Positions 6,604 through 61,534 of a DNA stretch of 64,000 nt are shown in pieces (within the stretch, counting starts at the first letter, position 1; every line of letters starts with the position of its first letter). The stretch lies in NCBI RefSeq assembly GCF_964204645.1, contig NC_134027.1, forward strand, positions 18,004,560 through 18,068,559. The letters run 5' to 3'. The notes under the pieces were generated by a model that had not been told where the DNA came from, did no database searches, and saw only the letters and a list, made by a program, of their open reading frames with translations. Origin of the DNA: Tubulanus polymorphus. Taxonomy: Eukaryota > Animalia > Nemertea. A program made the translations under genes and the position numbers.

Positions 6604-7082
6604 CAGGACTCGCGAGATTTTCAACAACACGGAAGTAACGTGTAATAAATGATGACTTGAATTGCATGACTACCTACCACCCCTCATAATTGTTGGGAAA
6701 CTAAACGTTCGGCACTGACTAAAAATTAGTAATAACATTTTTGAAATGGCCAATGGTATAATTTTTTTTTTTTTAACGGCCGTTAAGGCTTCATGTTTCG
6801 TCTGCAATTCACTGCAAATAGTTACGCAACTACGCAGATTTCAGTGTTTTTGGCAGCTGTACACTCAATCGGCACCGTTCGTGACTAGCTTCACTGCGGA
6901 ATTATCATTAATTAACATCGTCATATCACATCATCAACTTATATTGTGCCTTAAAACCCTAACAGCCGAAATAATTGAAATGCACACACGATTTCTATCA
7001 TTGAAAATTGAGAGAGTGGTCATGTTTGTGTTTGCTGCTTCGCATAAATCCCGCGCGGTGGCGCAACCGCGCGGAGTGGGGC

Positions 7083-7700
7083 CGATATGTCCAGACGATT
7101 ATCATTTGTTGATGTTTACTTATAACAATATGTATTACTATGACCGTTGCCTGCCGATGGGTTGCGCATCATCCTGTCAATTATTTGAAGTATTCAGTTC
7201 AACAATACAATGGATTCTATTGAATAAAAAAGACGTTCAGCTTATGTCCCACCTATTAGATGTGTATTTCTTTATCGGGAGGCCCATTTCTAGTCAGTGT
7301 AACTTAGCTATGCACTCATTTTTCGAAATTTGTACAGAAACCGGGATTCCCGTAAAACACGATAAGACTGTTCATCCCTGTACATGTTTAATAATATATG
7401 GTATTGAAATAGATTCAGACGCTATGGAAGCGCGTCTGCCATTAGATAAAGTGGAAAAAATTCTTGCTCAATTGTTGGACATTAAGTGCAAAAAGTCGGT
7501 GACGCTCAAGGAACTACAGTCACTGCTAGGCCTGCTCAATTTCGATTGCAGCGTAATCATACCCGGTAGGGCGTTTCTACGGCGCCTCTGCGATCTGACT
7601 TGTGGCATATCCCGGCCACACTACAGAATTAGGCTAAATAACGAAGCGAGATCTGATTTAACCGCGTGGTGGTCTATCGTAAACCATTTTAATGGAGGTC
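7083..7700 (+). pseudogene. DIRS/Ngaro-type reverse transcriptase fragment
   Basis: YYYDRCLPMGCASSC, decayed YLDD (HLLDVYFF), IYGIEIDS, LQSLLGLLNF, IPGRAFLRR. Most of RNase H is deleted; only the RQYAPW..LPTPIP tail remains, in another frame. Confidence 0.85.
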
Positions 7701-7902: not shown

Positions 7903-8232
7903 AGTAATAGGAAAAGTAGGCTTTCATAACAGAGGTCGAGACACCACTCATCACAGCTAGGCCGAGAACGGTCAACAGCGTTGTGATACACAATACAGTG
8001 AGTGCGCGTAACAACAGCTGCGCGTGGATAGATCGATACATCGAGGTGCTACCGAGAACGGTTATTAACGTGTGTGCTATTACTGTAGTACAGTGATTGT
8101 GTGTCAGCTGTGCTCGGATAAATAGATGCTGTGAGGCTTGGGTTAGAACGGTAAATAGCGTGCTTGTTATATACAAGGGGAAGTAATCCCCACTCATCAC
8201 CACAAGTAATTTTTTCCCTTATAAATGGGAGA
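7903..8232 (+). repeat. Left TIR of element B
   Basis: Near-identical reverse complement of 22363-22700. Confidence 0.95.
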
Positions 8233-8550
8233 TAGAAAAGCATTCTTAGCAACAATAAATAACAGAATAAAACCAGCTAAAAAACAATTTGAAATAAAAA
8301 AGTTAGTTGATGTTACAAAAGAAATTGAACATAAAATATTGAAATTAGAAAAGATAAAAACTAAATATGGAGAGAAAGTATCAGCTAATTTAAGCTACTG
8401 TAATGTTAGTACATCGCGAGAATTTAAAGTATTTTTACCTGATAAATGGGCTTCATTGAGTACAGAGGAATTAAAAGATTTATAAGGATTTAAAATAATC
8501 TATCATGGAAAAAATGAAGATGGCCATCATGATTTAGAAATTGTTGATTA
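8225..8550 (+). pseudogene. Small Maverick protein (LPDKW...GKNEDGHH family)
   Basis: Similar to the disrupted ORF at 40150-40507 (LPDRF...GKNEKGHH); premature stop. Confidence 0.55.
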
Positions 8551-8702
8551 AATTTAAAAAAAAATAAATTAATAAAAATAATGAATATCTAGAATCCGAA
8601 ATGACTTATCTGGACAATTTAATTGCTCCACATAGATAGACAAAAGTAGTGAGATATTTAATTGATTAAAAATGAAATTATTTTTTGCTTTTTTCTAAAA
8701 TA

Positions 8703-9059
8703 TTAATCCATTTTTTTTATTGTCAATTTTGGAATTTCAGAAGTATTTTCATTTTTAATATCAATAGTTTCAGAATTATTAATATCGTAAATTTTAGTTG
8801 ATTTCTTATACCAACTACACCCAATCAAAATGAATACAATTACAAATCCAGTTGCAAAATATAGATATTTATCAAATATTCTATTATTAGAAGGAGTATT
8901 TTCACCATTTTTATTAACATTTTTATCACTTATTTTTTCTATTACAGCTTTTTTATATTCTTGTGATTTAATTCCTAATTGCCGAGACCATTCAATTTGT
9001 TTCTGAGTTCTCGGTTTTTTCTTCAGAGTTAATTCCTTCACTTCTTCCCCTTCGCTCAT
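8703..9059 (-). CDS. Small single-TM Maverick protein
   Basis: KKPRTQKQIEW motif shared with 30446 and 54338; one hydrophobic segment. Confidence 0.7.
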   Translation of the reverse strand: MSEGEEVKELTLKKKPRTQKQIEWSRQLGIKSQEYKKAVIEKISDKNVNKNGENTPSNNRIFDKYLYFATGFVIVFILIGCSWYKKSTKIYDINNSETIDIKNENTSEIPKLTIKKMD

Positions 9060-9599
9060 TTATTATAGAAAATTTTTTACTTTCAATATTTGAAAATGTT
9101 ATAACTCCAGTTGATAATAATGTCATAAATCCACCTAATTGAAATGATAAATATCCAATCCATTTATTTAATTCAGTCATAACTAAATAATCATTTTTTA
9201 AATCAGCATATAATCTATTTTCATCTTGAATTGGCAGCATATTATTACATAATTTACAATAACCTTTTACTACATTATCTGATATCGCGTCATTAATTCT
9301 AGCTGTTCTCGCGGTTTCATAAATCTTAAATAATCTAATAATTTCATCTGATTTCATTGTATCTAATTCATTATAAGTTAAATTTTTACCGATAAAATTT
9401 TTACATTTTCCAGATGCTATTAATATTTCTGATGTTGATGTTTACAATAAAGATAATATTCATAATTATTATTTGTTGTAACATTATTTAAAGTACCATC
9501 ATCTGGAGTTAATTTTGTTTCTTTTATTCCAAAATCATCTAAAGTTTTTTCAATTGGAACATCGCCATTTTTAGATTTTATTTTCTTTTCACCTCCCAT
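8992..9599 (-). pseudogene. Conserved Maverick hypothetical protein (frameshifted)
   Basis: ARINDAISD...LKNDYLVMTEL, homologous to 3476-4048. Confidence 0.7.
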
Positions 9600-9904
9600 T
9601 TATATAACAAAAAAATTAGTTGTGATGTTGCAACTAGAATTTAACTAGAATGTAACTAAAAATCAACTAGATTAACAAACTAGTTGAATTATTATTGTTT
9701 TTATTTATTTCTTGTTAAATCTAGTTGATTTTTGTTCCAACTACCAATGACTAGAATTCAACTAGAATGTAACTAAAAATATACTAGATTAACAAGCTAG
9801 TTAAAATATTGTTGAATTTTATTTGATATTCATTTCAAATACCAATAACTAGAATTCAACTAGAATGTAACTAAATATGTAATAGATTAATAAGCTAGTT
9901 GAAT

Positions 9905-10497
9905 TTAAGTAAATTCATATTTAAATGGGTGTTGTAATCTGAATAGCAATTTTGATCTTTTATTATTTTTCAATTCATCCATATATTCATTATGTAAATC
10001 ATGTGGAATAATATCATTTTCCTCAAGTGCATTTTTCATCGATTTTCTATCTTTATTGTAGAATAAAACTAGAAATCTAATGTTTTCTCTAAAATCTTTA
10101 ACAATTGAATTATATTTTTGATTTAAAACCCAAGTTGTTATCCCAAAATGTCTACCAGAAAAAGCTAAATAACATAACTCACTCTCTAATTTTTGAATCA
10201 TGTAAATTTGCACAATCATCTATAATGAATAATGTATTTGATCCTTTATAAATATCAATTGCTATTTTTATACAATTATCTAAATTTTCTTTTACTGTTT
10301 TAGGATCTAATATAATTAATTTATTATTAATCATAAGTTTGATTAAATTCATATGTTGGACAAAATAATACTATATTATCAAAATAGTTTTTATAAATAG
10401 TTTCTAATAAATTTAATATAAAATAAATTTTTCCACAATTTGTTACGCCAGAAATTAACATATTATGAGGCTCAAATATAAATAATTCCTTATTCAT
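9905..10497 (-). pseudogene. Packaging ATPase of element B (disrupted)
   Basis: GVTNCGK Walker A near 10430-10450; FSGRHFGITTW. Confidence 0.85.
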
Positions 10498-11625
10498 TTA
10501 TATATTTTTAATTTTACTTGATAATATCCATTCATTAAATTTATCTGGCCAACCAATCCATTTTACTAAAGAATATTTTTTTATTTTAACAGTTTTTGTT
10601 TTTAGTACTTTTTCAATTTTATATTTTTGTTCTAGATTTTCAATAGTTAAACTTAATTCTTCTTCATAAAAATACCCATCAACTTCTTCACCATCTAAAT
10701 CTTCTAATTTATAGACATATGGTTTTGTTGTTATTACTTTTTTTATTTGATATATTTCTCTAGTAAAATTACGATCGTATCCTTTATCAAATATCTTTTT
10801 ATATTTAGAAATTTTAACATTTTGACCAACTTTAAATTTAGGTTCACCAAAATCATCTACAAGAAATGCCCCATACAAATTATTCCAAACAATTTCAGCA
10901 TTTTCAGGTTTTCTAGCATCAATAGGTTTCATTTCAAAAGAAGAATGATAAGAATTGTTATAACCATTTATCAATTTTGGTAAAACATCAATCCATTTAT
11001 AAGTATTATTTGCTGTGAAATATTTTGACATTCTTGTTCTCAATGTTCTATTAAATCGTTCAACAACTGCTGCTTTTTTATCCGATTTTGTTGAAAAATA
11101 TTTAATATTATGAAAATCTAAGAGTCCATGAACCAATGAATTATCAAATTCTTTTCCATCATCAAATTGAATTTTTTCTGGTTTTAGTTTACCACCTGAA
11201 AGAAATGTTCTTAAAACATTTGATGTTTGTACAGCATCTTTTCTATAAAGTGGGAAGCTCCATACATAACGACTAAAAATATCAATTATATTCAATATCC
11301 ACCAATAATCAAAATTATCTTTTTAAAGATTTTTTATATCAATTAAATCTCCTTGCCACTGTTGATCTACATAACTTACCATAGTTTTACGAGTTTTATA
11401 TTTTCTAACAATTTTTTTATGCGTTGTATATCTCGGTTGTTCTAACATAAATTCATTTATATCTTTATATTTAACTAAATTTTGTGGGATTATCTTATCT
11501 AATTTATCTTGTTTTACTTGACGCCATATATTTTTGGTAGAAGAATAAGCAACCGAACTCTCAGGGTTGTAATATAAATTTCTTAAATATTGTTCTTTAG
11601 TATTAGGAGTTTTTTTACCGCCCAT
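10498..11625 (-). pseudogene. DDE integrase with chromodomain, element B (one interruption)
   Basis: WQGDLID, QFDDGKEF and VERFNRT; chromodomain LVKWIGWPDKFNEW. Confidence 0.9.
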
Positions 11626-11646
11626 TTATATATAACTCCCACTCAT

Positions 11647-13107
11647 TTATTTAACAAAAAAATTAATTTTTTTATTTTTTATCATATTCACTAACCCAAA
11701 AATAATTGTACTTACAACTGTAATTAAAAATAAAATAATATCTTCAGCAGCAAAGTTAAGAATGTTCCCAGCAGATTTCAATATAAAACCAACAATTGAT
11801 GCAATAATTCCTGGTAAAGCTGCAGCAGATTTTTTAGATAGTTCCCATAAATATTTTGCTAATTTTTTTAAACCATCCTTAACTTTATCTTGTAAAGAAT
11901 TATTATCATTTGGGGTTTTATCCGGTTTATTGGGAGTACGAGTAGATTTCAGTGAATTTGATATAGCTAAACCAATTGTTGTAAATAACATAGTTACAGC
12001 TGTTAGAATTGAAAGAATTGTCATACCTTCTAGTTTAAATAATAATTTTATTCTATCTTTTAATGATATTTTAGAATCTGGTTTTATTATTAACTCTTTG
12101 AAAATAACTTTTAATCTATTGATATTATAATCATGTGATTTTAATAATAATTTAATTTCTTCTTTCTGTAATTCTATGTTATATTCTAAATCATCTTTTT
12201 CTTTTTCTAAATACGCATTTCTTTTTTTAAATTCAATTTCTTCAATAACTTTATTATCTCTATCTAATTTTAATTGTTCTATTTCTTTTATTTTATCAGT
12301 TCTATCTTTTTCCAAAGTTCTAATTTTAAAATCTCTTATACTTTTATCATGTGCAATTTTATCAGATGCAAGTCCTATACTAATAATTTCTCTAATTGCT
12401 TTATCTGAAAATATATTTAAATCTTCTAATTCTTGATCTGTTGCATCAAATAATCCATTCGGTAAAAATTTTTCAATTGGTACTTTATTTGATTTAAGTT
12501 TACTAGTTTTGGAAGTTATATTCTGTTCAGAAGTTGTTTCTGTTTCTGTTTTCTTTTTGATTATTTCAAATAATTCATTAATTCTTTGTTTAAATACGTC
12601 TATATCATTATCAGTTAATTCTTGTTTTATAACATCAGTTATTACATTACTATTACTAATTCTTTTAATTCTATCTGGATCTAAATCACTCAAAGTTGAT
12701 TTTGTTAATATTTTATTTTTATTATTTTTATAAGTGATATCAATATAATAATCACCTTTCAAATGATAATACCATTTACCATTATCTAAAAATTTTAATT
12801 GATCTGCTATATAAGGTCCAACGTCTTCATCATTTATGTTAAGTTTAGAATTTTCAATTATACGTTCTAATTTAGGTATTTTGTTTAAATTATCTAAATC
12901 TTGTTTTACCAAATCTGGGTCTAAATTTTCAGGATTTAATTGTGATTCTGCATTTTTAATATAATCAGGCATATTTAAATTATTATTATATTCTGGCTCA
13001 TTGCCGTCATTAAAACTTGTTTCACTAAAATCAGGCGGTTGTTCTTCAGTTATGCCGGGTTCATCAAAAGTATCCATTCCAATATCTTCTCCACCTTCTA
13101 AATCCAT
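11647..13107 (-). CDS. Coiled-coil protein with C-terminal hydrophobic helices
   Basis: 486 aa ORF; the C-terminal ~140 aa are nearly identical to 35086-35508. Confidence 0.75.
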   Translation of the reverse strand: MDLEGGEDIGMDTFDEPGITEEQPPDFSETSFNDGNEPEYNNNLNMPDYIKNAESQLNPENLDPDLVKQDLDNLNKIPKLERIIENSKLNINDEDVGPYIADQLKFLDNGKWYYHLKGDYYIDITYKNNKNKILTKSTLSDLDPDRIKRISNSNVITDVIKQELTDNDIDVFKQRINELFEIIKKKTETETTSEQNITSKTSKLKSNKVPIEKFLPNGLFDATDQELEDLNIFSDKAIREIISIGLASDKIAHDKSIRDFKIRTLEKDRTDKIKEIEQLKLDRDNKVIEEIEFKKRNAYLEKEKDDLEYNIELQKEEIKLLLKSHDYNINRLKVIFKELIIKPDSKISLKDRIKLLFKLEGMTILSILTAVTMLFTTIGLAISNSLKSTRTPNKPDKTPNDNNSLQDKVKDGLKKLAKYLWELSKKSAAALPGIIASIVGFILKSAGNILNFAAEDIILFLITVVSTIIFGLVNMIKNKKINFFVK

Positions 13108-13123
13108 TTATATAATAAAAAAA

Positions 13124-14518
13124 TTAAAATTTAAAATATAATATTCCTCCTATAACAATTCCTATACAAGTTATAGCTAATTTAGCATTTTCATGGGATT
13201 TATTATCATCATTTCGTTTAATTATTTCATGTTGAATATCACCGTGTGGGCGCCGCACGGCACCATTTTCTGTAGTATTATAATCCGGTTTAGAATCATT
13301 ATTTAATTTAATATTCTTAGTTTTAGTTTCTGTTGATTGAATATGTTTTTTAATTTTTTCACCTTCCATTAATTTTGGAGCAGTAATAATCTTTTTTATT
13401 TATATCATTTAATCCAAATTAATTATTTATTGTTGCAGTTTTAATTAGATTATTATAACCAATTATATTTCCCATCTTTAATACTAAATCATTAGAAATA
13501 ATAAATAGATTAGGGCCTATACAATAATTGAATCTAATATGTGATTTATCTAAATTATTTTGATATCTTGCAATGTTTTCTGGAATCGATCTATTTTTAT
13601 CATTATGAATGGAATCTTCAAATAAAACTTTAAATTGTTTTTGTGTATCAAATGATGTATTTAAATTTCCAATTATTGGGGATCTTGTTTCAACTTGCGC
13701 ACCTAAAATACATATCAAATAAATTCTAATAGATTGACTTATTCTTTGTATACCAGCTTTAGTAAAACCTTCGCTATTTTCTAAAATGAAATAAACCCCA
13801 CCATTATTATTTTCTTGTTTTAAATTATCATAGAATTTCGGTAATTTATTGAAATTTAGTGTTTCTAAATCCTTTTTTCTATTTTACCATAACCTAATTT
13901 ATTATTATAGATATTATAAAAAGTATTAGATGGTATGGGAAGTGTACAATATGCTGCAACATTTTCGGGGCAAGGAAATGATCTTATTGTTCCAATTTTT
14001 GTTCTAAAATCAGAATTATTTATATCTATATTAAATTCATTACAAATTTTATAAAACTTTGATAAATTTATGTTATTATCTAATTCTTTAAAACATCTAG
14101 ATCCTGGTAAAGGCTCTAATTCATTTATTATTAATCTTATTTGAAAGTATGTATGAAATCTAAATAAACTTTGAATTAATTTATATTTAGAATTATTCAA
14201 ATGATCATTCCAACTAATTCCACACCCTGTTGTTGCGCAATAAACAGCAAAATTTAATTGGTTCTGCCAATATTTTATATTAGATTTTAATAACCATTGT
14301 TTTTCATCTTTCAATTTTTTAAAATTAATTAAATATACATGAAATATATTTTCCATCTTTGCATTAAAATTACTAGTTTCAGTAACATAAATATCTAAAT
14401 TAATTAATGAATTTAAAACTTCATTTCTATATGAAATATCTTTATTAAAATCTATTGCAGGAATATTATATTTAATTGATTTATTATATTGGAAAGCTTT
14501 TGGAAAACTATCTACCAT
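13124..14518 (-). pseudogene. Conserved Maverick protein (YWQNQLNFAVYCATTGCG family), fragmented
   Basis: Three collinear ORF pieces homologous to 36584-37874 and 59760-60641. Confidence 0.7.
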
Positions 14519-14713
14519 TTATATAATAAAAAAATTAATAATTTATTAATTCTTTTAATAATTTTCAGGTTTTCTAGAATCAATAGGTTTCATTTCAAAA
14601 GAAGAATGATAAGAATTGTTATAACCATTTATTAATTTTGGTAAAACATCAATCCATTTATAAGTATTATTTGCTGTGAAATATTTTGACATTCTTGTTC
14701 TCAATGTTCTCAT

Positions 14714-14935
14714 TTATATAGGATGAAAATATCTTTGTTTTTCCAAATAATCAATAGTTAAATTAGATAAAGTAACTGCTAACGTTAATTTTAAGATATC
14801 ATTTATATCAAATCTATCAACATTAACACTTACCATTTTAAATACTTTTTTTAATACCATTGAATAACCAACAGTTCCAACTGATAGTAAGGCTCCATTA
14901 CATAAACCAGTTATTATCCACTTATTATCACTCAT
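14714..14935 (-). CDS. Small hydrophobic Maverick protein
   Basis: Homologs at ~38787-39014 and ~62460-62696. Confidence 0.6.
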   Translation of the reverse strand: MSDNKWIITGLCNGALLSVGTVGYSMVLKKVFKMVSVNVDRFDINDILKLTLAVTLSNLTIDYLEKQRYFHPI

Positions 14936-14938
14936 TTA

Positions 14939-15292
14939 TTAATCAAAAAAATTACTATCATCAAAATATTTAGTTATCTTAGTGATGATTAATTCAACAT
15001 TTATAATATTATTAGTTTCATTTTCATATATTTCAGTTATCATTTTTTTAATATCATCGATGATAAAATCTTCATCTAATTCATAAAATCTTAAAGATTC
15101 TCTAATTAAATTATTAATCTTTTCTACATTAAAAGTTTCTTTATCTATTGTTTTTTCATACTCAAATGTTAGTTCATTAGAAAATGCAATATTTTTAATA
15201 TGTGTAATTACATCAGTAATATCAAATTTCATTTCTTTCTCACGTTTAAAATCAAATCCAAAACATATGCTCGGTCCAACAGTTATATTCAT
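14939..15292 (-). CDS. Maverick hypothetical protein (MNITVGPS family)
   Basis: Homologs at 39015-39371 and 62705-63040. Confidence 0.7.
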   Translation of the reverse strand: MNITVGPSICFGFDFKREKEMKFDITDVITHIKNIAFSNELTFEYEKTIDKETFNVEKINNLIRESLRFYELDEDFIIDDIKKMITEIYENETNNIINVELIITKITKYFDDSNFFD

Positions 15293-15308
15293 TTATATAA
15301 CAAAAAAA

Positions 15309-16094
15309 TTACTCTTTACATCTTATAACTAATTCATAAATTACAGGAAAGTTATTCAAATCAATTAAGTAACCATTGTGATTTCTTATTTCTAACTTAT
15401 AATTTTTAAATCGTGAAATACAAGGTTTAAAATCACATTCTGTTAAATTATAATTTATTTGCGTTCCAAATTGTTTAACATTTTTTAATGGTAAAATATT
15501 CAATATACTAGAATTACGAGTTATATCTTTAGTTGCTTCAAATGTCTTTGTAGGATCAATTTAATTACAATAAATATAAAAGTGTGTAAAAGGCATTATA
15601 TTTGATCTACCTTCTGTGCTTGCTCTAATAATCATTTTATCTGGAGGAATTCCTAACAGTTAAGCTAAGGGTTTTTTAACCACGAAAGCAAATTTTTTTA
15701 TCCCTAAATCATTTTTAATTTCATCATTTAACTTTATTTTAATTTTATTAGAACTCTCACTTTTTATGAATTTAATATTAAATTTGGAATCACCTCTAAT
15801 TTGTATTCGTGCTTTTCTATTAATTTCTTGAGCTAATGTTTCTAAATTATATAATCCTGGTGTTAGCATAAGTTAAACCCATTTATGATTATTCTTATTA
15901 AAAATTAAAAAGGCTCTATGTTCATCAGTTTTATCTGATACATTATAAAAAGAGTTACATAAACTTATATTTACTAATTTCAAATCTACACAATTTTTAA
16001 ATTCTCTATCTAATTGTACTAATAAATTATGTGATTTATCATTTGTAAGTCTTCTAGAATCAACAAATATTCTATATTCTTTTAATTCTACCAT
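15309..16094 (-). pseudogene. Minor capsid (penton-like) protein, fragmented
   Basis: Homolog of 39388-40146. Confidence 0.65.
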
Positions 16095-16158
16095 TATTTA
16101 TAACATAAAAAAATTACCGCTCATCACTAAAAATTTTAATAAAATTTTTCCTTAATGA

Positions 16159-17187
16159 ATGGATGAGAAGATAGGATGTGAAATTTGTGGTGAACTTCTA
16201 AGAAAAAGTAATATGGCTCGACATATGAAAAAACATGATGAAAATTATAAACCCCCTAAACTAAACTGCCAAAATTGTAATAAATTATTCTCAAGAAATT
16301 ATGTTAAAAAACATTCAGAGAAGTGTAAAGTTAATGGCGCAACGGCTAATGTTGATAGTAATGAAAGTAATAGTATTTCTGTTGAAGTTGAACCTGAAGT
16401 TATTTGGAAAAGACCTTTCTTATTCTATGATAAGAATAATATGAAAGATCATTTCTGCGAGCCTTGTCGAATAAAATATAGTCCTGAAAATATAGAAGCT
16501 TGGGAGAATCATCAATTTCGCAAAATACATATAGATAAAATTTCTAATAAATTTGAAACTGAATTCAATGAAAGAAAAAATAAAATATTAGAAAAAATAA
16601 AATATGAGAAAACGTTGCCTGATAATGAAGAAACACTTAAAAAGTTGGAAAAACAATATAATGAATTATTACGAAAAACATATTATTGTGAATATTGTAA
16701 ATTGATTATTACAACAAGTAATTCAAATCTACATAATAAAACAATAAAACATAAAGAAAACGTAAGTAAATACCAAGAGCTTAATGAAGATCTATTACCA
16801 AGAAATTATAAACAAAAATGCCCACAATATATCTATGCGACCTTAAGACAAGAAGGTACTGTGATATTTTGTGTTGTATGTGGATGGCAAAGGAATTTAT
16901 GGGGTGAAGAAAAAACTAGAGATTTTCTCATAGAACCAAAATTAAATTATCTCGATGAAATTTTTAAAATATTTTCTATAGAAGATCATACACCAGAATA
17001 TATGCAATGGCTTGAAAAAATGAAAATGGTAGAAAATAAAAATGGTGAAATAACTCAAAAAGATATTATAAAAAGAATTATTCCATCAACATTTAACACA
17101 AAACAAAAGAAAATGTATTTATATTTATTATCTAACGATTATTATGAAAAACCTAAATTAACAGAAGAAGATATGGAAAATATATAA
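16159..17187 (+). CDS. Multi-zinc-finger protein
   Basis: CEIC...HMKKH, CQNC...HSEKC, CEPC...H..H and CEYC...H..H motifs; intact 342 aa; only in element B. Confidence 0.75.
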   Translation: MDEKIGCEICGELLRKSNMARHMKKHDENYKPPKLNCQNCNKLFSRNYVKKHSEKCKVNGATANVDSNESNSISVEVEPEVIWKRPFLFYDKNNMKDHFCEPCRIKYSPENIEAWENHQFRKIHIDKISNKFETEFNERKNKILEKIKYEKTLPDNEETLKKLEKQYNELLRKTYYCEYCKLIITTSNSNLHNKTIKHKENVSKYQELNEDLLPRNYKQKCPQYIYATLRQEGTVIFCVVCGWQRNLWGEEKTRDFLIEPKLNYLDEIFKIFSIEDHTPEYMQWLEKMKMVENKNGEITQKDIIKRIIPSTFNTKQKKMYLYLLSNDYYEKPKLTEEDMENI

Positions 17188-17483
17188 AAAAAACATTCAA
17201 ACAAATATTAGTATATCATTTGGAAAATAGAATAACAGATTCAATTAATTATGAATTCTTTTTAAATAAGATTGTTAACTATTTAAACATCGATATAATT
17301 CCATTTGATGAATTAACAAACAAAAAGAAACAAAGAGAGCGAGATGAAATGAGGTACAATATATCACATTTTTTAAATGAGAAAAAATGAAATGGAAGAA
17401 CCTAAACAAATTATACAAAAACAATTAAATGAAAAAGAAGAAACCAGTAGCGATTTCGAGTATGATGATATTGATTTTCTGTT

Positions 17484-20400
17484 TTAATAACCATAAGGTA
17501 ATGTTTTTATACCATCATCTAAAATATGCCTTTTATCATCAAATGGATTCAAACTAGTTTTTTCAACTTCATTAATGTACATCTCGTGATTTTCTGATCT
17601 TAAACAATTCATTTTATGTTTCATTACAATTGAGTTATATAAACACTTTATATAATCTTGAAATTCTCTATGTTTATCAACCACATGTTTTGTTATTCCT
17701 TTTAACTTTTTTGCTTCATGATCTTTTGTTCCGTAACTATACATTTTACTTCTTATCCCAACAAATTCAATCATTTCATCACCCCCTAATTCATCTTTAA
17801 ATTTACCAGGAATCTTTTTATTATCATTGCTAAATAGTTCATGATCTTTGGGATAATTGCTAAAATCAAAATGATGTTTCAATGTTTTAAAGTCTTTTGT
17901 TATGTAATTTGTCTTGATTTTTAGTATGTACGCATCAGTATTGAAGCAACTTAATGGAAATCCACAGTTGAATGTGCCATCTTCAGTTGAGTTTGGTTTA
18001 GATTTAATCAATCCAATATTCATATTAAAACCTAATGAATTACATAATATATTCAATCCTGATATAGCAACTTTTCCGTTCTGTGCAAAGGTTATCTTTT
18101 TATCCTTTGTAAATTTTGTAGCACCATCTGCTGCGTAGAATCTAATGAAGAACCATTTTCTTAAATTATATTTTGCCTTTAATGCATAATCTGGAACTAT
18201 CTTTTCTTTAGTTGAAGTATTACTTTTCACTATTGCATGAATATAGAATTCATCATTATATTTAATTGCAAAATCTTTAGGGTTATTCACAAGTATTCTA
18301 TAAACTGCCGTTGATTTCATATGATCCACGATTCTAAATGTTTTATGTGAATAAACTTCTTCGCAGAATTTCTTAATTCTTTCTAATAATTTCAAGTCTT
18401 GATTGCATAAATACCAACAATATTTATTACACCAAACATGATTATACACACCTGCCGAACCATCTCCCATGAAAAATCCTTTGATAAAATATTCTTTTTC
18501 ATCTAATGTTTCGGGTTCTATATTATAAATATTATCAATTATTTCATCAAATGACATATGATTCATTCTTTTGAAAAATCTTTTATGTAATAATTCGTCT
18601 CCAATTTTCATATCAGTTGGTTTTATTTCATCACCATTTCGTTTAATTAAACTATGATCTTCTGTAACATCTACAAACCCTAATTTAGTTCTAACTCTAT
18701 AGATTTTCTTATTTGTTTTATGCCTAATAATATTCTTTAATTTTTCCATCCATTTCTTGTCCAAACATCCATTAAACCATTTATTTGTATTAATTCTTTT
18801 TCACCATAAGAAATATAACGTTCATTTTGCTTTGGAATTATTTCTGAAATTCTTCTAATTAATATTTGGTTATTGTATTTTAATAATATTGGGGTGTCTG
18901 CAGTAACAGAATCAAAATATAATATTTCAATATGCTTTTCCCCAAAAAGTGGTTGTAAAACATTATAATAAAAATCATACATTAATAATTTTGATAACTT
19001 CTAAAACAGTTGAACCAATGAATATAGGTTTATTAAATTTCATTGACGTTCTTTTTAATTTAACTGCTGTTAAATAATCTTCAAATCTTTTATTTCCTAA
19101 ATGTCTAGGGCTTGATTGTAAATGTATATTTTACTAATTCAATATCATTTCTATTTCTAATATTTTCACATGTTTTACCATAAAAACTATTATTCATTAA
19201 TTTAAAAGAATCTTTTTCGAAATCTGTTTTAGATATTGTTCTCCGTTGAGTATTAAAATCTATATATTTTTCTAACCACTTCGATTTATTAAATTCAATA
19301 TATCTATGTACTTTCTTTAATTTCATTCCTTGTTTTAGATAAAATTTTAACATTCTATAATGAACAATATAATTGTATTTATTATTTTGAGTAAGTATTA
19401 ATTTTTCTGTAAAAACGTGATCTTTCGGTTTTATTTTCTTCTGGTATTCACTTAAATAACTATCATCTACGGCTAAATGTTCTGGGCAATATGGCAAGTT
19501 TCTTGTTTTAAACTTTATATTTTCGGGATATTCTAAATCAACTACAAAGAAATAACCAATTGGTGCTTCATCTTTTAAACTCGTAATTGCGCTTTCCCAA
19601 TCAGTTTTATCATCATTTTCAACTTCTGTTAATATAAAATTTTTGTATGGTTGAGGTTGCATCATTGCCCAACCATATAAATTATTGGCGTCAATATATA
19701 ATAATTTATATTCATCATTTGCTTTAAAATATCTATCTCCCATAACACCACTAATTCCACCTCTAATTGATTTTTCAAATAATAAAACCATGTCTGGTTC
19801 TTTTAATAAATCTAATTCTACATTTGTATATTTTAAACCACATTGCCCGGTTAAACCAGGACTAGAGAAGCAATAATAAGGATCAACATTAAAATGATTC
19901 AAATTAATTTCTCTAAATTTTTCAAATATATCAGCCAATATCATAACATCTGATTTTAAATATAAATCAACTAATTCACCATGATTTTTCATCTTAAAAT
20001 GGTTCCAAATATTTAATGTAGTATTAAACACTTCATCTTTCACATCTTTTAATTGATCATAAAATTGATCTTTTAATTATTCTGTTACATTAAAATCATT
20101 GTGTGTTTTATAAAATGAATAAGGAATTGCACCTTTATATCTCAATAATTTAAAATCTTGTTCATTTGGATAATAATATCGAGTTATAACAAAATCATTA
20201 TCAACTAAACTTTTTGCTAAATTATCTAATGAACTATTTAAAAATCTATAAGAATCTAAAAATCTAATGCAACCAAATTGAAATGAAATATAATTTTCAG
20301 ATGTCTTAGCTAATAGTTTAAAATCATATTCTCTTACATTTACACCATTCATAGCATTATATTCTTCTATTTCTTGATTAATTGCGCCCAATTTTCCCAA

Positions 20401-22370
20401 TAATTGTTTTATAAATAGATGGGTATCATAGCCTGATAAATTATGAAATAATATTGGTACGAAATTAACTTTCTTAGCTTGTAAATTACAATCTTCATGA
20501 GCAGCTCCACGATATTTTGAATTTAAATGATCATGATCTCTAACTTTTTTATCAAATGAATAAAAACGTTTTTCACAATAACAACAATGAGTTGCATAAT
20601 TAAAATCAATTTCATCTTCTTTTGTCATAACTATTCTTTTATTTTTGTTTAATAATTCTGCAAAATCACTTTCTAATTCAGTTATTTTATTACAAAAATC
20701 ATTAACTACATTTTCACCTCTAAAAGAAATATATTGACTTTCATATAATTGGGGATAATTTGATTTCATGTAAATTCCATAAGCAGCAGCTCTTTGATGA
20801 ACTTTTTTAATTGTGTTTATGATTGGTGGGTCTTGAATTATATCTTCATTTAGTTCATTTCCTTTATCCATTGATTTTAAAAATTGCATTTTGTTATACA
20901 TTTCTTTTCTATCTTGGTCAGTTAATTCTTTATTCAACGATTCAAAATCCCCATGAATTACAAATGGAACGATATTTTTAAATTAATGATTAGTAAATTT
21001 CAATTTATAATCTTTTTCTGTTGGCATTATTAATTTCCAAAAATCTTCATTATCTATCTTTATTATTCTTTATGTTTTAATAATGTATTCTCAGTCGTAA
21101 ATTTAGATAAACATTTTCTACATAGATAAATTTTATTATGGTGATCACTTTCTGTTCTAAAGAATAAATCAATTTGTTTTAGCCACATATAATGTTCATT
21201 TTCATCTTTTTTGTAATATAACAAATCTATAACATTTTCATCATCATAATATTCTGTTAAATATAAAGCTTCCAATGTATAATCTTTAATATTTTCGCCT
21301 TTTGTCTTTGGTAATTGCATTAATTCAAATACATTTATTTTTAAATTATTAACTTTTTCTATTTTAGGAATCATTTTTATAGTTACTGGATATTGATCAA
21401 TTTCATATAATGTTTCATATTTCCGGTAATTTGTTATTCTAAAACTATGCGTAATATCTTCTGTTGGGTGTAAACAACTTATAATCGACTACAGAAAACA
21501 TTTATTATCTTCATTTTGAACTTTTATAATTGTTTTTATATCATTTTTAAACATTTTATTACTTTTTGATGTTTTATTTCTTTTTGTATTATAAACATTT
21601 AAATCTAAATATATAATTTCATTTGATGATAAGCCAGAACCTTCGAAATATCTTTCTTCATTAAGACGTTTAAATTCATTAAATATTTTTTCTAACTTCT
21701 CTTTTATTTGTGTTTTTGAAATTATTTCTTCAGAGTGTGTTTGAATATTATAATCCATTTTATCTTCTGACTTTATAAAACTTACTTTCCCAGAGATACT
21801 AATTTTTGGATATTCAACATCTGTTATCAAATCTAGTATTTTTTCTATTATTTCATTAAATTTACTATAATCTTCTATTGTTGTGCCTTTAAAAAATCTA
21901 AATATAATAGCCGCAGGACGAATTTTACTATGTAATGTTTCTAAAATTTCAATTGTATCTTTTATTTCTAGTTATTCGATATAATTTCTAACATTTTCCA
22001 TGTAAGGTTTATTTGAAATGGATTTAGTTTTTGAAGTTGATTTTTTTCCTTGTTGAGGTTTATCATCGATTCCTAAAACATTATTACTCAAATTTTGATG
22101 GTGTTTTTGTGATTTGATATGTCTTTTATAATTCCTTTTTACTATAAATTCATTACAAACTTCACATTTTATTTCATCCACATTCATATCATCTAATCGT
22201 TCTTATCTTTCATTGGAATTTTCTGGAGTTTCAAGATCTATAACATTTTTTATATGATTTGCAGATTTTTCATGACGCGATTTTTGAGATTTATCAATGT
22301 ATTTTTTATAATATTGACAACAATATTGATTTTCATTAACATCAATTTGTTCTGTCTTATTCTCTCCCAT
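17484..22370 (-). pseudogene. Protein-primed family B DNA polymerase with intein (frameshifted)
   Basis: HNLSGYD exonuclease motif, YIDANNLYG, KLMNNSFYGK, YFD^TDA, GKFKDE; endonuclease VII-like RDHDHLN..YRGAAH..CN insert. Confidence 0.93.
17940..18910 (-). mobile_element. Intein with LAGLIDADG homing endonuclease in PolB motif C
   Basis: Starts SVTADTPILL directly after YFD; block B VTEDHSL; LAGLIDADG-like FIKGFFMGDGS and FFIRFYAADGA; ends STEDGTFNCGFPLSCFN followed by +1 Thr (TDAY). Absent from element C PolB (LYCDTDSY). Confidence 0.9.
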
Positions 22371-22700
22371 TTATAAGGGAAAAAATTAATTGTGGTGATG
22401 AGTGGGGATTACTTTCCCTTGTATATAACAAGCACGATATTTACCGTTCTCACCCAAGCCTCACAGCATCTATTTATCCGAGCACAGCTGACACGCAATC
22501 ACTGTACTACAGTAATAGCACACACGTTAATAACCGTTCTCGGTAGCACCTCGATGTATCGATCTATCCACGCGCAGCTATTGTTACGCGCACTCAATGT
22601 ATTGTGTATCACAACGCTGTTGACCGTTCTCGGCCTAGCTGTGATGAGTGGTGTCTCGACCTCTCGACCTCTGGTATGAAAGCCTACTTTTCCTAATACT
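22363..22700 (-). repeat. Right TIR of element B
   Basis: Reverse complement of 7903-8232 with an 8-bp duplication. Confidence 0.95.
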
Positions 22701-23416
22701 TATATCTCAATTTATAGCGCATCTGTTTCTGTCAGGTTACAGCAGTCCCTCTATTTTTTCATACATTTCAGCAATAAGCTTTTACCATAAATCGGCTCGC
22801 CTACCTGAGTAATAGGGGTTTAGTTGTTTCATACCAAAGGTCAAGAGGTCGAGCTCGTAAAAAATGAAAATAACAATAATTTCCAGTTGAATTAGTCGCG
22901 CACACTCCTAATTCAACTAGAAATGAACATAATTTACATGAATTTCATATATTTTAAAATCATTTATATGTTAATTACAAAAGTGTGAGTAAAGTGTGAG
23001 TAATAATTCATATTTTAACTGATTTCGAGTAAAAATATAAATAAAATAAATGGATAACTAAAAGAGTATTAAATTAACGAGTAATTAACGAGCTCTTATA
23101 GAATAGATAGATAGATATATTTTAAACATATTTCAATATTTTTATTTGTATGAGTTAGATTTTTAAACATAAAAAGTGTGAGTAAAGTGTGAGTGAAATA
23201 ATTCATATTTAAAACAGTGAATATTTATATTTATATGTGTTAAATTCTTATTTTCAGTATAAAAGTAACGAGTAATTAACGAGTGAAATAATTCATATTT
23301 AAAACAGTGAATATTTATATTTATATGTGTTAAATTATTGATTTTTAATATAAAAAGTAACGAGTAATCAACGAGTGAAATAATTCATATTTAAAACATT
23401 GAATATTTATATTTAA

Positions 23417-24067
23417 ATGAGTTTTAATGAAAGTTTTGTTATTAAAATGAAGAAAGAAGAAGAAGAACCCAACTTTAAAATCGAAATCAATGAAACCAAT
23501 AAATCATTTTCACAGTTTAACATTAAAAATTATATTTCAGCAACAAATTTAGTGTCCGCAAGGTATTATGAAATTGATAACATTACTATGATTAATCAAT
23601 TATCATCAAATGAAACGTATTTAATTACTGAACTTATTGATACTTTTGATAATGGAATAAAAAATCCTAAAATATTCAATACAGTTTTAAATTTTAAAGG
23701 AACTTTAGATGAAAACATAATTAATATTCTTAAAATTCCTTTGAATGAAAGAAATGATGATATAATACTTTCAAAAGATTATAATGATTTGATTAACTTA
23801 AGAATTGAAAGAAGACAATTATATTATTTCAATTTTGATAATAAACAAATTATCTATAATGAAAATTCATCAAATATTGGAATTCAATGTGAATTAGATA
23901 ATGAAAAATCATTTAAAGATATTGCAGTTCAATGTTATTTAGATGATGAATTTAGAAAATTCAATCCTAATGAAAAAGTGCATTGTTATTGCGGAGGTAA
24001 ATATTTAAAATCACATAAATCAAAGCATTATGAAACAATTAAACATAAAAACTGGCGTAAAGAGTAA
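23417..24067 (+). CDS. Hypothetical protein with C-terminal zinc finger
   Basis: HCYCGGKY...HKSKHYETIKH; its 5' 85 codons are duplicated in the right TIR (25930-26190). Confidence 0.65.
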   Translation: MSFNESFVIKMKKEEEEPNFKIEINETNKSFSQFNIKNYISATNLVSARYYEIDNITMINQLSSNETYLITELIDTFDNGIKNPKIFNTVLNFKGTLDENIINILKIPLNERNDDIILSKDYNDLINLRIERRQLYYFNFDNKQIIYNENSSNIGIQCELDNEKSFKDIAVQCYLDDEFRKFNPNEKVHCYCGGKYLKSHKSKHYETIKHKNWRKE

Positions 24068-24118
24068 CAATTCTACATTATAATTATTGAATTGAGTTAA
24101 ATGATTTAAATATCTGAT

Positions 24119-24722
24119 AGACTGTTAAAATGATAAATTGTTTGACAGTTGAAATGATAAATTGTTTGACAGTTGAAATGATGAATTGTTTGACAGTTGA
24201 AATGATAAATTGTTTGACAGTTGAAATGATAAATTGTTTGGCAGTTGAAATGATAAATTGTTTGACAGTTGAAATAATAAATTTTTTGACAGTTGAAATG
24301 ATAAATTGTTTGACAGTTGAAATGATAAATTGTTTGACAGTTGAAATGATAAATTGTTTGACAGTTGATATGATAAATTGTTTGACAGTTGAAATGTTAA
24401 ATTGTTTGACTGTTAAAATGTTAAATTGTTCGACTGTTAAAATAATAAATTGTTTGGCGGTTGAAATGATAAATTGTTTGACAGTTGAAATGTTAAATTG
24501 TTTGACTGTTAAAATGTTAAATTGTTCGACTGTTAAAATGTTAAATTGTTTGGCGGTTGAAATGATAAATTGTTTGACAGTTGAAATGTTAAATTGTTTG
24601 ACTGTTAAAATGTTAAATTGTTCGACTGTTGAAATGTTAAATTGTTAGACTGTTGAAATGTTAAATTGTTTGACTGTTGAAATATTAAATTGTTAGACTG
24701 TTGAAATGTTAAATTGTTTGGT
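24119..24722. repeat. 24-bp minisatellite, about 25 copies
   Basis: Unit ATGATAAATTGTTTGACAGTTGAA, drifting to ATGTTAAATTGTTCGACTGTT(A/G)AA. Confidence 0.95.
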
Positions 24723-25800: not shown

Positions 25801-25930
25801 AACCAATAGCGTGAATAGAAATCAAAAAGATTTAAATAAAAAAACAATAAGTTACTTTATCTAATACTAACTTATTTAACTTATTGTTTTTTTATTTAAA
25901 TCTTTTTGATTTCTATTCACGCTATTGGTT
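25801..25930. repeat. Perfect 54-bp-arm inverted repeat
   Basis: 25801-25854 is the exact reverse complement of 25877-25930. Confidence 0.95.
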
Positions 25931-27406
25931 TACAAGAATTTAGGATTTTTGATTCCATTATCAAAAGTATCAATTAGTTCAGTAATTAAATATGTTTCAT
26001 TTGATGATATTTGATTAATCACAGTAATGTTATCAATTTTATAATACCTTGCGGACACTAAATTTGTTGCTGAAATATAATTTTTAATGTTAAACTGTGA
26101 AAACGATTTATTGGTTTCATTGATTTCGATTTTAAAGTTAGGTTCTTCTTCTTTCTTCATTTTAATTACAAAACTTTTATTAAAACTCATTCAAAGATAA
26201 ATATTCAATGTTTTAAATATGAATTATTTCACTCGTTAATTACTCGTCACTTTTATACTGAAAATAAGAATTTAACACATTTAAATATAAATATTCACTG
26301 TTTTAAATATGAATTATTTCACTCACACTTTTTATGTTTAAAAATCTAACTCATACAAATATAAATATTGAAATATGTTTAAAATATATCTATCTATCTA
26401 TTCTATAAGAGCTCGTTAATTACTCGTTATTTTTATACTCTTTTAGTTATCCATTTATTTAACTTATATTTTTACTCGAAATCTGTTAAAATATGAATTA
26501 TTACTCACACTTTTGTAATTAACATATAAATGATTTTAAAATATATGAAATTCATGTAAATTATGTTCATTTCTAGTTGAACTCGGAGTGTGCGCGACTA
26601 ATTCAACTGGAAATTATTGTTATTTTCATTTTTTACAAGCTCGACCTCTGGACCTTTGGTATGAAACAACTAAACCCCTATTACTTACCTGACCCCACTG
26701 CATCTTTCTTTATAAGAAAACTCCTAAAAGGCGTCGCAAATTCCATCCCGAGCAGCCCTGACGCCCGTTTACCCATTACAATAGATATTTTGACTCGGTT
26801 GGTTGCCGCGATACCCGTCGTAATGGGCGAGGGCTTCGACGGTATCTTGCTCAAGTCTAGGTTCGTCTTGTGTTTTCATGCATTTTTGCGGGTCGGCGAG
26901 ATATCGGTTAAGTCTAGTGGCCATGCGACTAAGGTATTACATAAACATCAGGTCACCTTGTTCCATGGTCCTAATTCAACGCCGATGTTACGCGTCTGCA
27001 GCACGGACTACAAGCATAGCGATTTGATACCAAAACCATTGCTGTTGCCAAAGCATTCAAACCCATCCGTTTGTCTGGTCACAATTATATCTCATTACCT
27101 CCATGTGAGCAAGCATACGTCCGGTCCATTTTTTCAATTTCGAGATGGTGCAGCTGTATCGTATGTTTTTTTTGCAAAATCGCTAAAAAGTTGATATCAT
27201 TTCTCGGCCTGCCAGCTATACATCGCATAGATTTCGGATTGGCGCCGCAACCAATGCCGCAACGAACGGGGTCCCCGAGCCAGTCATTCGAGAGTTAGGA
27301 CGATGCAATTCAGACGCTTTCAAACGATACATTAGAATCAGTCCGGCCGGGACGGGACAGCACTAATGACGCATTGACGCAATTTTAAATGTTAAACTTT
27401 AATTTT

Positions 27407-40525: not shown

Positions 40526-43500
40526 TTAAAATTTGATTAACACGTTAGAATTCTTTTCATTATCTCGTTCTCTTTTGTTTATTCTCTTTTAAATTTTAAG
40601 TATTCATCTAAATTGCAACCATAAGCAACTGTATGAATTCAATCATCTAAAATATATCGTTTATCATCAAATGGGTTTAGACTTATCTTTTCAATTTCTT
40701 CAATAAACATTTCATGATCTTCAGATCTTAAACATCTCATTTTATGTTTTCTAACTTCTTCATTGAATATACAATTGATGTAATCTTTGAAATGAATATT
40801 CTTTTCTACCACACTTTTGGTTATTCCTTTTAACTTTTTAGCTTCATGTTCTTTAGTTTTATATGAATACATTTTAGATCTAATACCTATGAACTCTATC
40901 ATTTCTTCACCACCTAATTCATCCTTAAACTTCCCTGGAACTTTTTTATTATCATTGCTAAACAATTCATGATCTTTAGGATAGTTACTAAAATCAAAAT
41001 GATGTTTTAATGTTTTTAAATCATCTGTTATGTTATCAGTTTTTATCTTTAATATGTAAGAATCGGTATCACAATATAATATTTCTATATGTTTTTCTCC
41101 AAAAAGTGGTTGTTATACATTATAATAGAATTCATACATTAGTAATTTTGATAATTCTAAAACTGATGCGCCAACATAGATTGGTTTATTAAATTTCATT
41201 GATGTTCTTCTCATCTTAACTGCAGCTAAATTTTCATCAAATATTCTGTTAACAATGAACTTAGGATATGATTGTAAATGTCTAATTCTTTTACCATTAC
41301 TAACTAACTCAATATCATTTCTATTTCTATTATTTTCACAAGTCTTACCATAGAATGCATTATTCATTAACTTGAAGAAATCTTTCTCAAAATCAGTTTT
41401 AGCTTCAGTTCTCTGTTTGGTGTTAAAATCTATATATTTTTCTAACCACTTAGATTGACTAAATGAAATATATCGATGTACTTTTTTTAGAATCATTCCT
41501 CGATTCAAATAAAACTTTAACATTCTATAATGTACTACATAATTATATTTATCTTCTTGAGTTACCATTAACTTTTCTGTATGAATATGATTTTCGGGTT
41601 TAATTCTTTTTTGGTAATTTGATAATTCTTCATGAGTTACAGTTTTATGTTCGGGACAGTAAGCTAGATTTCTAGATTTAAATTTAATATGTTTAGGATA
41701 TTCTAAATCTACAACAAAGAAGTAACCAGTATCTGAATCATCTGCAATATCTAGAATTCTTTTCTTCCAATCAAATTTATCATTATTTTCATTCTGTAAA
41801 ACTTCACTTATTTCAAATACTCCATAAGGTTGTGGTTCCATCATTGCCCAACCATACAAATTATTTGCATCTATATATAATAACTTATATCCAGGGTTAT
41901 CATTTACATTGAAATATCTATCACCTAATACACCTGAAACTCCTCCTCTTATAGATTTTTCAAATAATAGTAATTGATCTGTATTTGTTAACAAATCCAT
42001 TTTTATATCTGTAAATTTTAATCCACATCCCCATGTTAATCCTGGTGATGAATAAAAATGACAAGGATCAATATTAAAATATTTTAGGTTTACATCTCTA
42101 AACCTTTCGAATATATCGGTTAATAATAATACATCTGATTTTAAATATATATCTACTAATTGTCCATGATTTTCTATTTTGAAATGATTCCAAATATTCA
42201 ATGTTCTATTATAGACTTCATCTTTAACATATTCATTTTTTAATTAATCATAGAATTGTTCTTTTAATAATTCAGTTATGTTAAAATCATTATGATTTTT
42301 ACAGAAAGAATATGGAATTGCGCCTTTATATCTCATTAATTGGAAATCATCATTATTTGGGTAGTGTTGTTTTAATATTTTCAATTCATCATCAACTAAT
42401 GATTTTGATAAGTTATCCAATGAACTATTTAAAAATCTATATGAATGTATAAATCTTAGGCAACCAAATTGGAATGATATATAATTCTCAGATGTTTTAG
42501 CTAACATTCTAAATTTATAAGTTGGTATTTTATCTTTCGATCTATTTGAATTTAATCTTTCTATTTCATTAATAATTTCTTCTATTTTATGGCATAACTG
42601 TTTGATGAATAAATGTGCATCATATCCTGATAGACTATGAAATATAACTGATACAAAGTTAATTTTCTTAGCTTGTATGTTACAATTCTCATGTGCGGCG
42701 CCTCTAAACTTTCCGTTCAAATGATCATGGTCTCTTACTTTTTTATCTTTATAATTAAATATCTTTTCACAATAATAACATTTATCTGCAAACGCAAATT
42801 CTTCTTTATCTTCTTCTGTCATTATAATTTCTATATTTGTATTCAATAATTTACTAAATCTTATTTCATATTCAATTAATAAGTCACAAACATGATTGAT
42901 AACATTTTCATTTCTGTAATTATAATATTCACTTTCAATTAGTTCTGGATAATCAGATTTAATATATAACCCGAAAGCTGCAGCTGATTGATGAATCTTT
43001 TTAATAGTATTTGTTTTTGGTGGTTCATCTGAAAAATCATTTTCATTAGAATTTCATTTCTTTCTCTTATAATATATTTCTTTTCTATCTTGATCAGTTA
43101 ATTCTTTATTTAATGATTCAAAATCTCCATATATAACAAATGGTACTTTATTTTTGTAATCATATTTTTTGAATTCTAATATTTTATCCTGTTCATTTGG
43201 TAAAACTAATTTACAATAATCATGATTTTCACATAATTGTTTATGATTTAATAATGTACTTTCATTACTGAATCTATGTAAACATTTTCTACATAGATAT
43301 ATTTTATTATGGTGATCACTTTCTGTTCTAAAGAATAAATCTATTTGTTTAATCCACATATAATGATTCTCATAATATAATATATCTATAACATCGTTTG
43401 AATCATAATCTTTTGATAAATATAAAGGTTCTAATGTATAATGTTTTATATTGTTACCTTTTGTATTTGGTAATTTGATTAAATCAAATACATTTATCTT

Positions 43501-44577
43501 TATATTATTATCTCTTTCTATTTTTGGGATGTTTTTAATTATAACAGGATACTTATCTATCTTATAAATTTTTTCAAATGGTTTATAATGAGTTAATCTA
43601 AAACTATGTGTAATATCTTCTGTTGGATGTAAACAACTTATAATTGTCCATAGAAAACCTTTATCATCTTCATTTTGTACATTTATAACAGCATTAGTTT
43701 TGAATGGTAGTTTAATATAACTTGATGCTTCAATATCTGGTTCTTTATAATATGATACATTATTTTCATCAATTGGTTTTGATTTAGTTAACTTATTATA
43801 TTTTGTGTTATAAACATGTAAAGTCATAAATATTATTTCATCAAATATTAAACCAGATCCTTCAAAATATTTCTCTTCTATTTTAGTTTTTACTTCATTA
43901 TAACATTTATCTAATTTATCATCTATATGTTGTTTATATATAATATGTTGTGAATGAGAATTTATATTATATATTGGTTTATCTTCAAATTTTATGAATT
44001 TAACTTTAGAAGATATACTTATTTTAGGGTATTCAACATCAGTAATTATTTTTATTATTTCTTTCATATTTTCTAAATGTTTTTTATTTTCTTCTAATGT
44101 TTTTCCTTTATGAAATTTAAACTCAATAGCTGCTGGGCCAATATCACTTTTAAATGCTTCGGTTATCTCTATATCTTTTTTATTATCTAATGAATTAATA
44201 TAATTTCTTACATCTTCCATGTATGGTCTTTTATTGTTTAATTTATTTTTTATGCTTTTAATTGTCTTCTGTTTCTTATCATTATCTTTATCAAAATAAT
44301 CTTCACCTCAAATATCATTATTCTTATTTCTAATATGACTTTTAGATTTTAAATGTTCTTTATAATATCTTTTATCACTGAATGATTGATTACATGTATC
44401 ACATTTGTATGTTTCTTTTTCATTCTTTAATTCATCTAATTTAGTTTCTAATATATCATCTTCATATTCTAATTTCAATTTATTCTCTATATGTGTTTTA
44501 GTTTTATTGTGTCTTGCTTTTTGGGATTTATCTATATTGATATTACATGTTGGACAGTAGTAATTATTTGCTTCCAT
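40526..44577 (-). pseudogene. Protein-primed family B DNA polymerase (intein-free, fragmented)
   Basis: N-terminal zinc fingers, IYGDFES, HSLSGYD, YIDANNLYG, KLMNNAFYGK, LYCDTDSY (~41055-41080) and GKFKDE. Confidence 0.93.
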
Positions 44578-61531: not shown

Positions 61532-61534
61532 TTA

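Follow-up and report, generated by a model that had tools for sequence, protein, structure and literature searches.

A dead pol-c-type intein in the DNA polymerase of a Maverick element and the likely giant-virus origin of its family

Maverick B and Its Genomic Surroundings

The window (the whole stretch of 64,000 nt that was analysed) contains a Maverick element of 14.8 kb, copy B (7903..22700), with ends reading 5′-AGTA. The element is flanked by a perfect 6-bp target duplication (7897-7902 and 22701-22706), and its left terminal inverted repeat (7903..8232) is 95% identical to the right one (22363..22700) over 343 columns. Inverted ends and a 6-bp target duplication are the criteria for Maverick/Polinton elements given in the available part of PMC8097293. 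Copy B also encodes a protein-primed PolB, a retroviral-type integrase and a packaging ATPase, the gene set of these elements, and the Maverick context proposed in the earlier note is upheld by all of these features.

The genes for the exteins of the polymerase lie on the minus strand and were delimited by tblastn with empty (intein-free) relatives. The N-extein, for which P0550 and P0169 were used, occupies 18911..22334, and the C-extein, whose first residue is the +1 Thr, occupies 17484..17939. The polymerase of the window has no PF03175 match itself, and its relatives P0001 and P0003 have one. The integrase, with a chromodomain, is encoded in two pieces on the minus strand (10498..11625; Pfam rve E 1.1e-5, Chromo E 2e-4). 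The adjacent gene of an A32-type packaging ATPase (9911..10497, minus strand) is frameshifted and shows 80-82% identity to an intact A32 ORF at 1443-2054. No Pfam match to major or minor capsid proteins or to a protease was obtained among the window ORFs scanned.

Copy B resides in a DIRS-type retrotransposon, the reverse transcriptase of which is encoded at 7007..7696 on the plus strand. The tyrosine recombinase gene of the DIRS element is split by B, and its pieces are matched, in their order, by a DIRS protein of Mytilus. The middle piece (22696..22809, plus strand) corresponds to residues 356-393 of P0433, and the rest of the gene (26688..27339, plus strand) to residues 392-610 (E 1e-41). 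The same gene is interrupted by a 3.9-kb element (22808-26685), located about 100 nt from B, with Maverick-type ends and a 6-bp target duplication of its own. It contains a short ORF twice, the copies facing each other, as well as 25 units of a 24-nt repeat, and is probably non-autonomous. Two insertions so close to each other may point to a preferred target.

Most of the window is Maverick DNA. Three further Mavericks were found, A (inverted, 1-6640), C (28800-45040) and D (53448-64000), with mutual identities of 80-89%, and the polymerase lies inside the window only for B and C. The exonuclease region of both polymerases includes an endonuclease VII-like HNH motif (PF02945; 20480-20620 in B and 42660-42820 in C), which most filled relatives carry as well. 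An ORF of 486 residues at 11647-13107 has a C-terminal amphipathic, membrane-like stretch; by eye, and with no profile match, it resembles GasderminX, an accessory gene described for Beta adintoviruses (PMC8502044).

The Insert in Motif C of the Polymerase

The polymerase gene of copy B is interrupted by an insert of 971 nt on the minus strand (17940-18910), placed between the Asp and Thr codons of PolB motif C. The junctions read ILYFD/S upstream and N/TDAYILKIKT downstream. The earlier note had given exactly this position and length; the motifs that it quoted (TEDH, GFFMGDG and RFYAADG) are all present, and a single frameshift occurs near 18740, as it had said.

All parts of the insert are encoded on the minus strand. 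The N-terminal splicing piece, with Ser1 and block A, extends up to the frameshift (18740..18910) and is 60% identical to P0001 over 55 residues. Block B follows as TEDH at 18654..18665, the TxxH pattern being found in 21 of the 21 intact Maverick-type inteins examined. The first LAGLIDADG helix, GFFMGDG (18459..18479), was recognised by profile match and alignment. The second one, RFYAADG (18123..18143), has Arg at a position occupied by Gly in 22 of 22 intact Maverick-type copies. Between 17991 and 17990, a gap relative to P0001, P0294 and P0003 marks an in-frame deletion of 31 residues, with which most of block F is gone.

The generic profiles were weak. Pfam LAGLIDADG_3 (PF14528) matched the piece from the window above its cut-off (E 4.5e-5), while Intein_splicing matched the insert below its cut-off (E 3.4e-4), and TIGR01445 gave E 0.01, in the N-terminal piece. 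A dedicated profile, built from 62 non-Maverick pol-c inteins only, matched both pieces of the insert (E 1.6e-72 and 1.8e-7) among the 1156 frame segments of the window scanned, and none of the other 1154 segments. The E-value of 1.6e-72 and the existence of independent relatives rule out a chance ORF or an assembly artefact.

The residues of a class 1 intein, namely Ser1, TEDH, the terminal Asn and the +1 Thr, are present in the window copy. The intein pieces are 40-44% identical to the mimivirus pol-c intein, which occupies the same site in its PolB. The junctions, the Pfam and pol-c profile matches and the motif alignment confirm, at the level of sequence comparison, that the insert is a pol-c-type intein with a LAGLIDADG endonuclease in motif C of a Maverick protein-primed PolB, represented here by a broken copy. 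The identity of the insert and the pol-c site had both been anticipated correctly.

Decay of Copy B

The lesions of the intein comprise the frameshift, the loss of 31 residues around block F and the substitution of Arg for the conserved Gly. The N-extein has changes of frame near 21060, 19130 and 18990 and several stops. All 21 intact Maverick-type relatives examined, as well as P0294, have the conserved Asp of block F that the window copy lacks, so the loss reads as a lesion of this copy and not as a trait of the intein family. The deletion of block F and the possible death of the copy had been noticed before, and both observations stand. With the intein and the exteins broken, copy B is, judging by its sequence, dead and capable of neither splicing nor homing.

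One sign of death named in the earlier note, the penultimate Phe, does not hold, as this position is variable among 270 pol-c-site inteins (Lys in 144, His in 82 and Phe in 9). The residues TDA at +1 to +3, also considered as a sign of decay, were rejected, since this natural variant occurs in P0294 and in empty polymerases too.

The Empty Site of Copy C

The polymerase gene of Maverick C (40540..44568, minus strand) is free of the intein and contains several stops. Its motif is uninterrupted, ILYCDTDSYILKIKT, and the empty site lies between 41068 and 41067. The flanks of the site in B and C are 72% and 77% identical on the two sides. Copy C, which the earlier note had taken for an empty allele 22 kb away, therefore belongs to another subfamily and is not a sister allele, and the B/C pair shows no homing in this window. 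Near the site, the identity of B and C is 90% and 92% in two 60-nt windows, which is no higher than the background (up to 95% in other windows). The sliding identity gives no signal of a co-conversion tract, and the pair was discarded as evidence of homing.

Intact Relatives of the Intein

An intein at the same site was found in 12 clusters (90% identity) of other Maverick-type polymerases. They include 22 complete open copies, which represent nine clusters and many of which are near-copies. Of 397 homologs found, 120 were listed; the best seven of these, and nine altogether, are Maverick-type pPolBs whose intein at this site is open. The remaining listed homologs are RNA-primed PF00136 PolBs, that of mimivirus included. 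The intein is in frame in P0001, P0003, P0006, P0007, P0009 and P0158. A profile search of cluster representatives added P0294, the nearest relative (71% identical), with block F intact, and the polymerase search added two more filled clusters, P0187 and P0227. Empty alleles exist among homologues at 97-99% extein identity.

The Maverick-type inteins are 333-354 aa long and have a C-terminal end GFPL. Ser1, TxxH, the YD of block F, the terminal Asn and the +1 nucleophile are present in 21 of 21 intact relatives examined, and both LAGLIDADG aspartates are kept in 22 of 22 complete copies, some of which are only about 40% identical. The AlphaFold model of P0159, a natural sequence of 363 residues, has a pLDDT of 88.9 and best matches the TliVMA intein (E 2.6e-17, TM 0.66), the intein endonuclease 2cw7, PI-PfuI, PI-SceI and I-DmoI. 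A Hint fold with an inserted endonuclease is thus predicted for P0159. A sequence search of solved structures gave PI-PkoII as a weak match (E 5.6e-4), and another such search was dominated by exteins.

In protein splicing, Ser1 together with block B initiates the N-O shift, the +1 Thr takes over the N-extein and the terminal Asn cyclises. It is predicted that intact copies of the family splice out post-translationally by means of Ser1, TxxH, the block F Asp, the terminal Asn and the +1 Thr. The polymerase would need this splicing, and be inactive before it, because the insert splits its catalytic motif. The copy in the window is dead, and intact members of the family exist elsewhere. Several filled relatives are located on contigs of 0.1-1 Mb, which suggests that these contigs are host chromosomes.

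Another Maverick-type intein with a frameshift, disrupted at a different position, lies on a metagenome contig of 4.2 kb (L086:2-4189). This contig was the only Maverick-type locus among 42 in the scan of JGI metagenomes, and no intact filled element with flanking genes was found there. A relative of the intein family occurs at a non-allelic site in a type II topoisomerase (P0342). Besides, eight PolBs of 684-760 residues (P0043, P0053, P0062, P0066-P0068, P0075 and P0082) start about 66 residues before a pol-c intein and are perhaps products of split polymerase genes of a virus group.

Origin of the Intein Family

The intein of P0077 (residues 1053-1403, 351 aa) is the published mimivirus pol-c intein. 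In the phylogenetic analysis, for which 24 to 47 of 214 non-Maverick inteins of 320-400 residues were taken according to closeness and spread, the Maverick inteins were recovered as a single clade in each of three trees. The 13 Maverick rows are united with a support of 100/99, and with a support of 100/100 when nine archaeal pol-c inteins serve as an outgroup. In the archaeal-rooted tree they nest among giant-virus-type inteins, the branch joining them to six marine sequences of this type having a support of 94/91, below the star threshold of the tree tool. The 24 giant-virus-type rows, a label that is not verified as viral for all of them and that covers P0058 with its Pol-delta zinc finger, were monophyletic in 0 of 200 bootstrap trees.

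The C-terminal GFPL signature was found in 15 viral contigs, 13 of them labelled as giant-virus MAGs, and in 42 metagenome loci, of which 41 are of giant-virus type. A scan of prokaryote genomes found it in none of them. A prokaryotic source was rejected on this ground and because the only archaeal inteins are distant.

The single Maverick clade nested among giant-virus-type inteins bears out the giant-virus affinity proposed in the earlier note, and a single entry into Mavericks, from the polymerase of a giant virus, is likely for the family. It is distinctly unlikely that the intein came from a PolB of eukaryotic cells or from a virus group not yet sampled, or that the transfer went from Mavericks to giant viruses. 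The lack of a star on the nesting branch and the Pol-delta-like P0058 leave some room for such readings. The distribution of GFPL across viral contigs, giant-virus-type loci and prokaryotes argues against them, as do the outgroup position of the archaeal pol-c inteins and the non-Maverick members, which make up 249 of the 270 pol-c-site inteins and are far more diverse than the Maverick ones.

Entry from a giant-virus polymerase would have taken place in a cell where a giant virus and a Maverick-like element were present together, in line with the co-infecting donor imagined in the earlier note. The YxDTD codons may have been so similar that the endonuclease could cut the polymerase of the other class as well.

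Probable Spread between Maverick Copies

LAGLIDADG domains of homing inteins cut empty sites, and repair copies the intein into them; the recognition site of these enzymes is about 20-30 bp. On the extein tree of the present study, the filled or empty state needs 11 changes on 52 rows, eight of which are forced by starred branches; the empties were thinned to 35 representatives of 71 usable out of 124, so that the 11 changes are no frequency. Among the matches listed, the intein is present in only four of the 120 long pPolBs that are nearest to copy C.

A further comparison concerns the group of P0003 and its neighbours, with seven filled and eight empty polymerases that are 94-99% identical. 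Ten fixed differences between filled and empty copies were found in 1191 columns, and all of them are within −7 to +44 residues of the site. Such clustering was reached in 0 of 200000 random placements. The cluster looks like a footprint of the homing type. Either the filled copies imported donor flanks or the empty ones altered the target, and an active nuclease is needed either way.

The second of these options, escape of the empties from the nuclease by a change of target, agrees with the three site haplotypes of the empty copies and with the filled ones having kept YMD/TDSF, which is common in neighbouring lineages. However, the divergent block reaches +44 residues, far past the recognition site of a LAGLIDADG enzyme, and conversion fits better; escape as the explanation of the block is rather unlikely, and it, too, implies an active endonuclease.

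In P0006, the intein is present in a very distant class of polymerase. Its extein is barely alignable to others (best blastp E 0.003), and its intein falls in the subgroup of the window intein (99/90). We take P0006, from its motif, to be a VSR-motif pPolB of the kind described by Jeong et al.

One old acquisition followed by vertical inheritance with repeated precise loss, and with no ongoing homing, would explain why, in three groups of HNH-motif pPolBs, the branching of the inteins largely follows that of the exteins, and it is consistent with the identical flanks of the empty P0144 and the filled P0005. But P0006 breaks this congruence across polymerase classes, the fixed differences cluster at the site, and both endonuclease aspartates persist in every complete copy down to about 40% identity. 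The four filled polymerases among the 120 closest listed would, moreover, require many exact losses. We regard purely vertical inheritance as very unlikely.

Homing between Maverick copies, as proposed in the earlier note, is thus supported indirectly by relatives elsewhere (the site footprint, the extein tree and P0006) and not by the B/C pair. The family likely spreads by endonuclease homing, to judge from these comparisons. The monomeric LAGLIDADG domain would cut an empty motif C, and repair from a filled copy would convert the site together with nearby flanks; the many copies per genome would supply empty targets. Taken together, a dead copy of a pol-c family that likely entered once from a giant virus and likely homes among Mavericks is the best explanation of the data, and we hold it with good confidence.

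The Probable Animal Setting

No host gene, tRNA or Rfam match was found within the window, so that its setting was judged by the elements that it contains. Among 120 listed relatives of the DIRS reverse transcriptase, 13 are named by organism, with 47-57% identity: 11 are from bivalves and two bear bacterial MAG labels, the named proteins being biased to well-annotated species. The only named close relative of the pPolB among the matches is from a soft coral. The integrase with its chromodomain, the 6-bp duplication and the AGT ends match animal Mavericks. Bivalves are described as the richest hosts of Maverick-type elements in the accessible part of bioRxiv 2025.04.19.649669.

The residence in an animal nuclear genome assumed in the earlier note gains from the location of B in a DIRS element with mostly bivalve-named relatives and finds no support in host genes of the window. 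The DIRS affinities point indirectly to an animal host, most likely a bivalve mollusc, and the intein family is probably carried in animal chromosomes. That the window is DNA of a protist or another AT-rich eukaryote would accord with the missing host gene, tRNA and Rfam matches and with the naming bias; against the bivalve share of the named DIRS relatives, the soft-coral polymerase, the reported richness of bivalves in such elements and the animal-type integrase, duplication and ends, this is highly improbable.

Implications

We lean towards the view that an intein of giant viruses passed from an RNA-primed polymerase into a protein-primed one and is at present homing in the Mavericks of several marine animals. 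If this is true, animals inherit functional inteins with their chromosomes, and giant viruses must have occurred in the same cells as animal Mavericks or the forebears of these elements. A survey of 2018 reports, in the part available, that inteins are absent from metazoan genomes, and a family of inteins carried by endogenous animal viruses with many copies would be an exception. The barrier would be passed by means of many copies per genome, offering empty targets to a homing endonuclease without sex or infection. The family would also be a case of homing from one class of polymerase to another, the two having little in common apart from the catalytic motif. It would be physical evidence that Mavericks and giant viruses have been in contact, a point that matters for the question of whether Mavericks depend on large DNA viruses or encounter them. 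Genomes in which filled and empty copies are 98% identical make homing and target escape directly measurable.

Comparison with Known Systems

The intein is of a known kind in a new class of host. A search of openly accessible full texts, limited to the main papers, found no LAGLIDADG intein in a Maverick polymerase. The word "intein" occurs 0 times in PMC8502044, PMC8097293, bioRxiv 2023.08.22.554363 and bioRxiv 2025.04.19.649669.

The closest report on the Maverick side is that of HNH and VSR nuclease insertions in the Polinton pPolB (Jeong et al., bioRxiv 2023.08.22.554363), and Krupovic et al. 2024 (PMC11161782, available part), who cite the HNH and VSR domains, suggest intein invasions as the source of such insertions in polinton polymerases. 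These cases resemble the present one in having nuclease domains within Polinton polymerases. However, no splicing domain is described for them in the accessible text of Jeong et al., where "LAGLIDADG" is likewise found 0 times, whereas the family described here has a full intein of Hint type that interrupts motif C, and alleles with an empty site exist.

Gallot-Lavallee et al. 2023 (PMC10710043, in the portion available) report inteins from nuclear scaffolds of Klebsormidium, Tetrabaena and a labyrinthulomycete, where they reside in virus-like DNA polymerases. As in the present case, an intein was brought into a nuclear genome within an endogenous viral polymerase. The hosts in that paper are algae and protists, and "polinton", "animal" and "metazoa" occur 0 times in its main text. 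Invertebrate iridoviruses, which are DNA viruses of animals, carry inteins as well, according to the available passages of PMC549080 and PMC5784728, where they are cited. Unlike Mavericks, they are free-living large viruses that are not inherited in an animal chromosome, and the intein of the Chilo virus is Gln-type.

The pol-c allele itself is known from archaea and giant viruses, as stated in the accessible part of Ogata et al. 2005 (PMC549080). Archaeal pol-c inteins (L095-L104) use the same site as the Maverick ones, YxD/S...HN/TDS, but are longer (394-420 aa), show 24% identity in the only full-length match and form a long separate branch. The mimivirus PolB intein, as far as PMC549080 was available, shares with the Maverick inteins the site, Ser1, TxxH, the LAGLIDADG domain, the terminal Asn and the +1 Thr, and its length of 351 aa compares with 333-354 aa in the Maverick family. 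In mimivirus, however, it resides in an RNA-primed PolB of a free giant virus, whereas the polymerase here is the protein-primed PolB of an integrating Maverick, and the Maverick inteins differ from it in forming a separate clade with the GFPL end.
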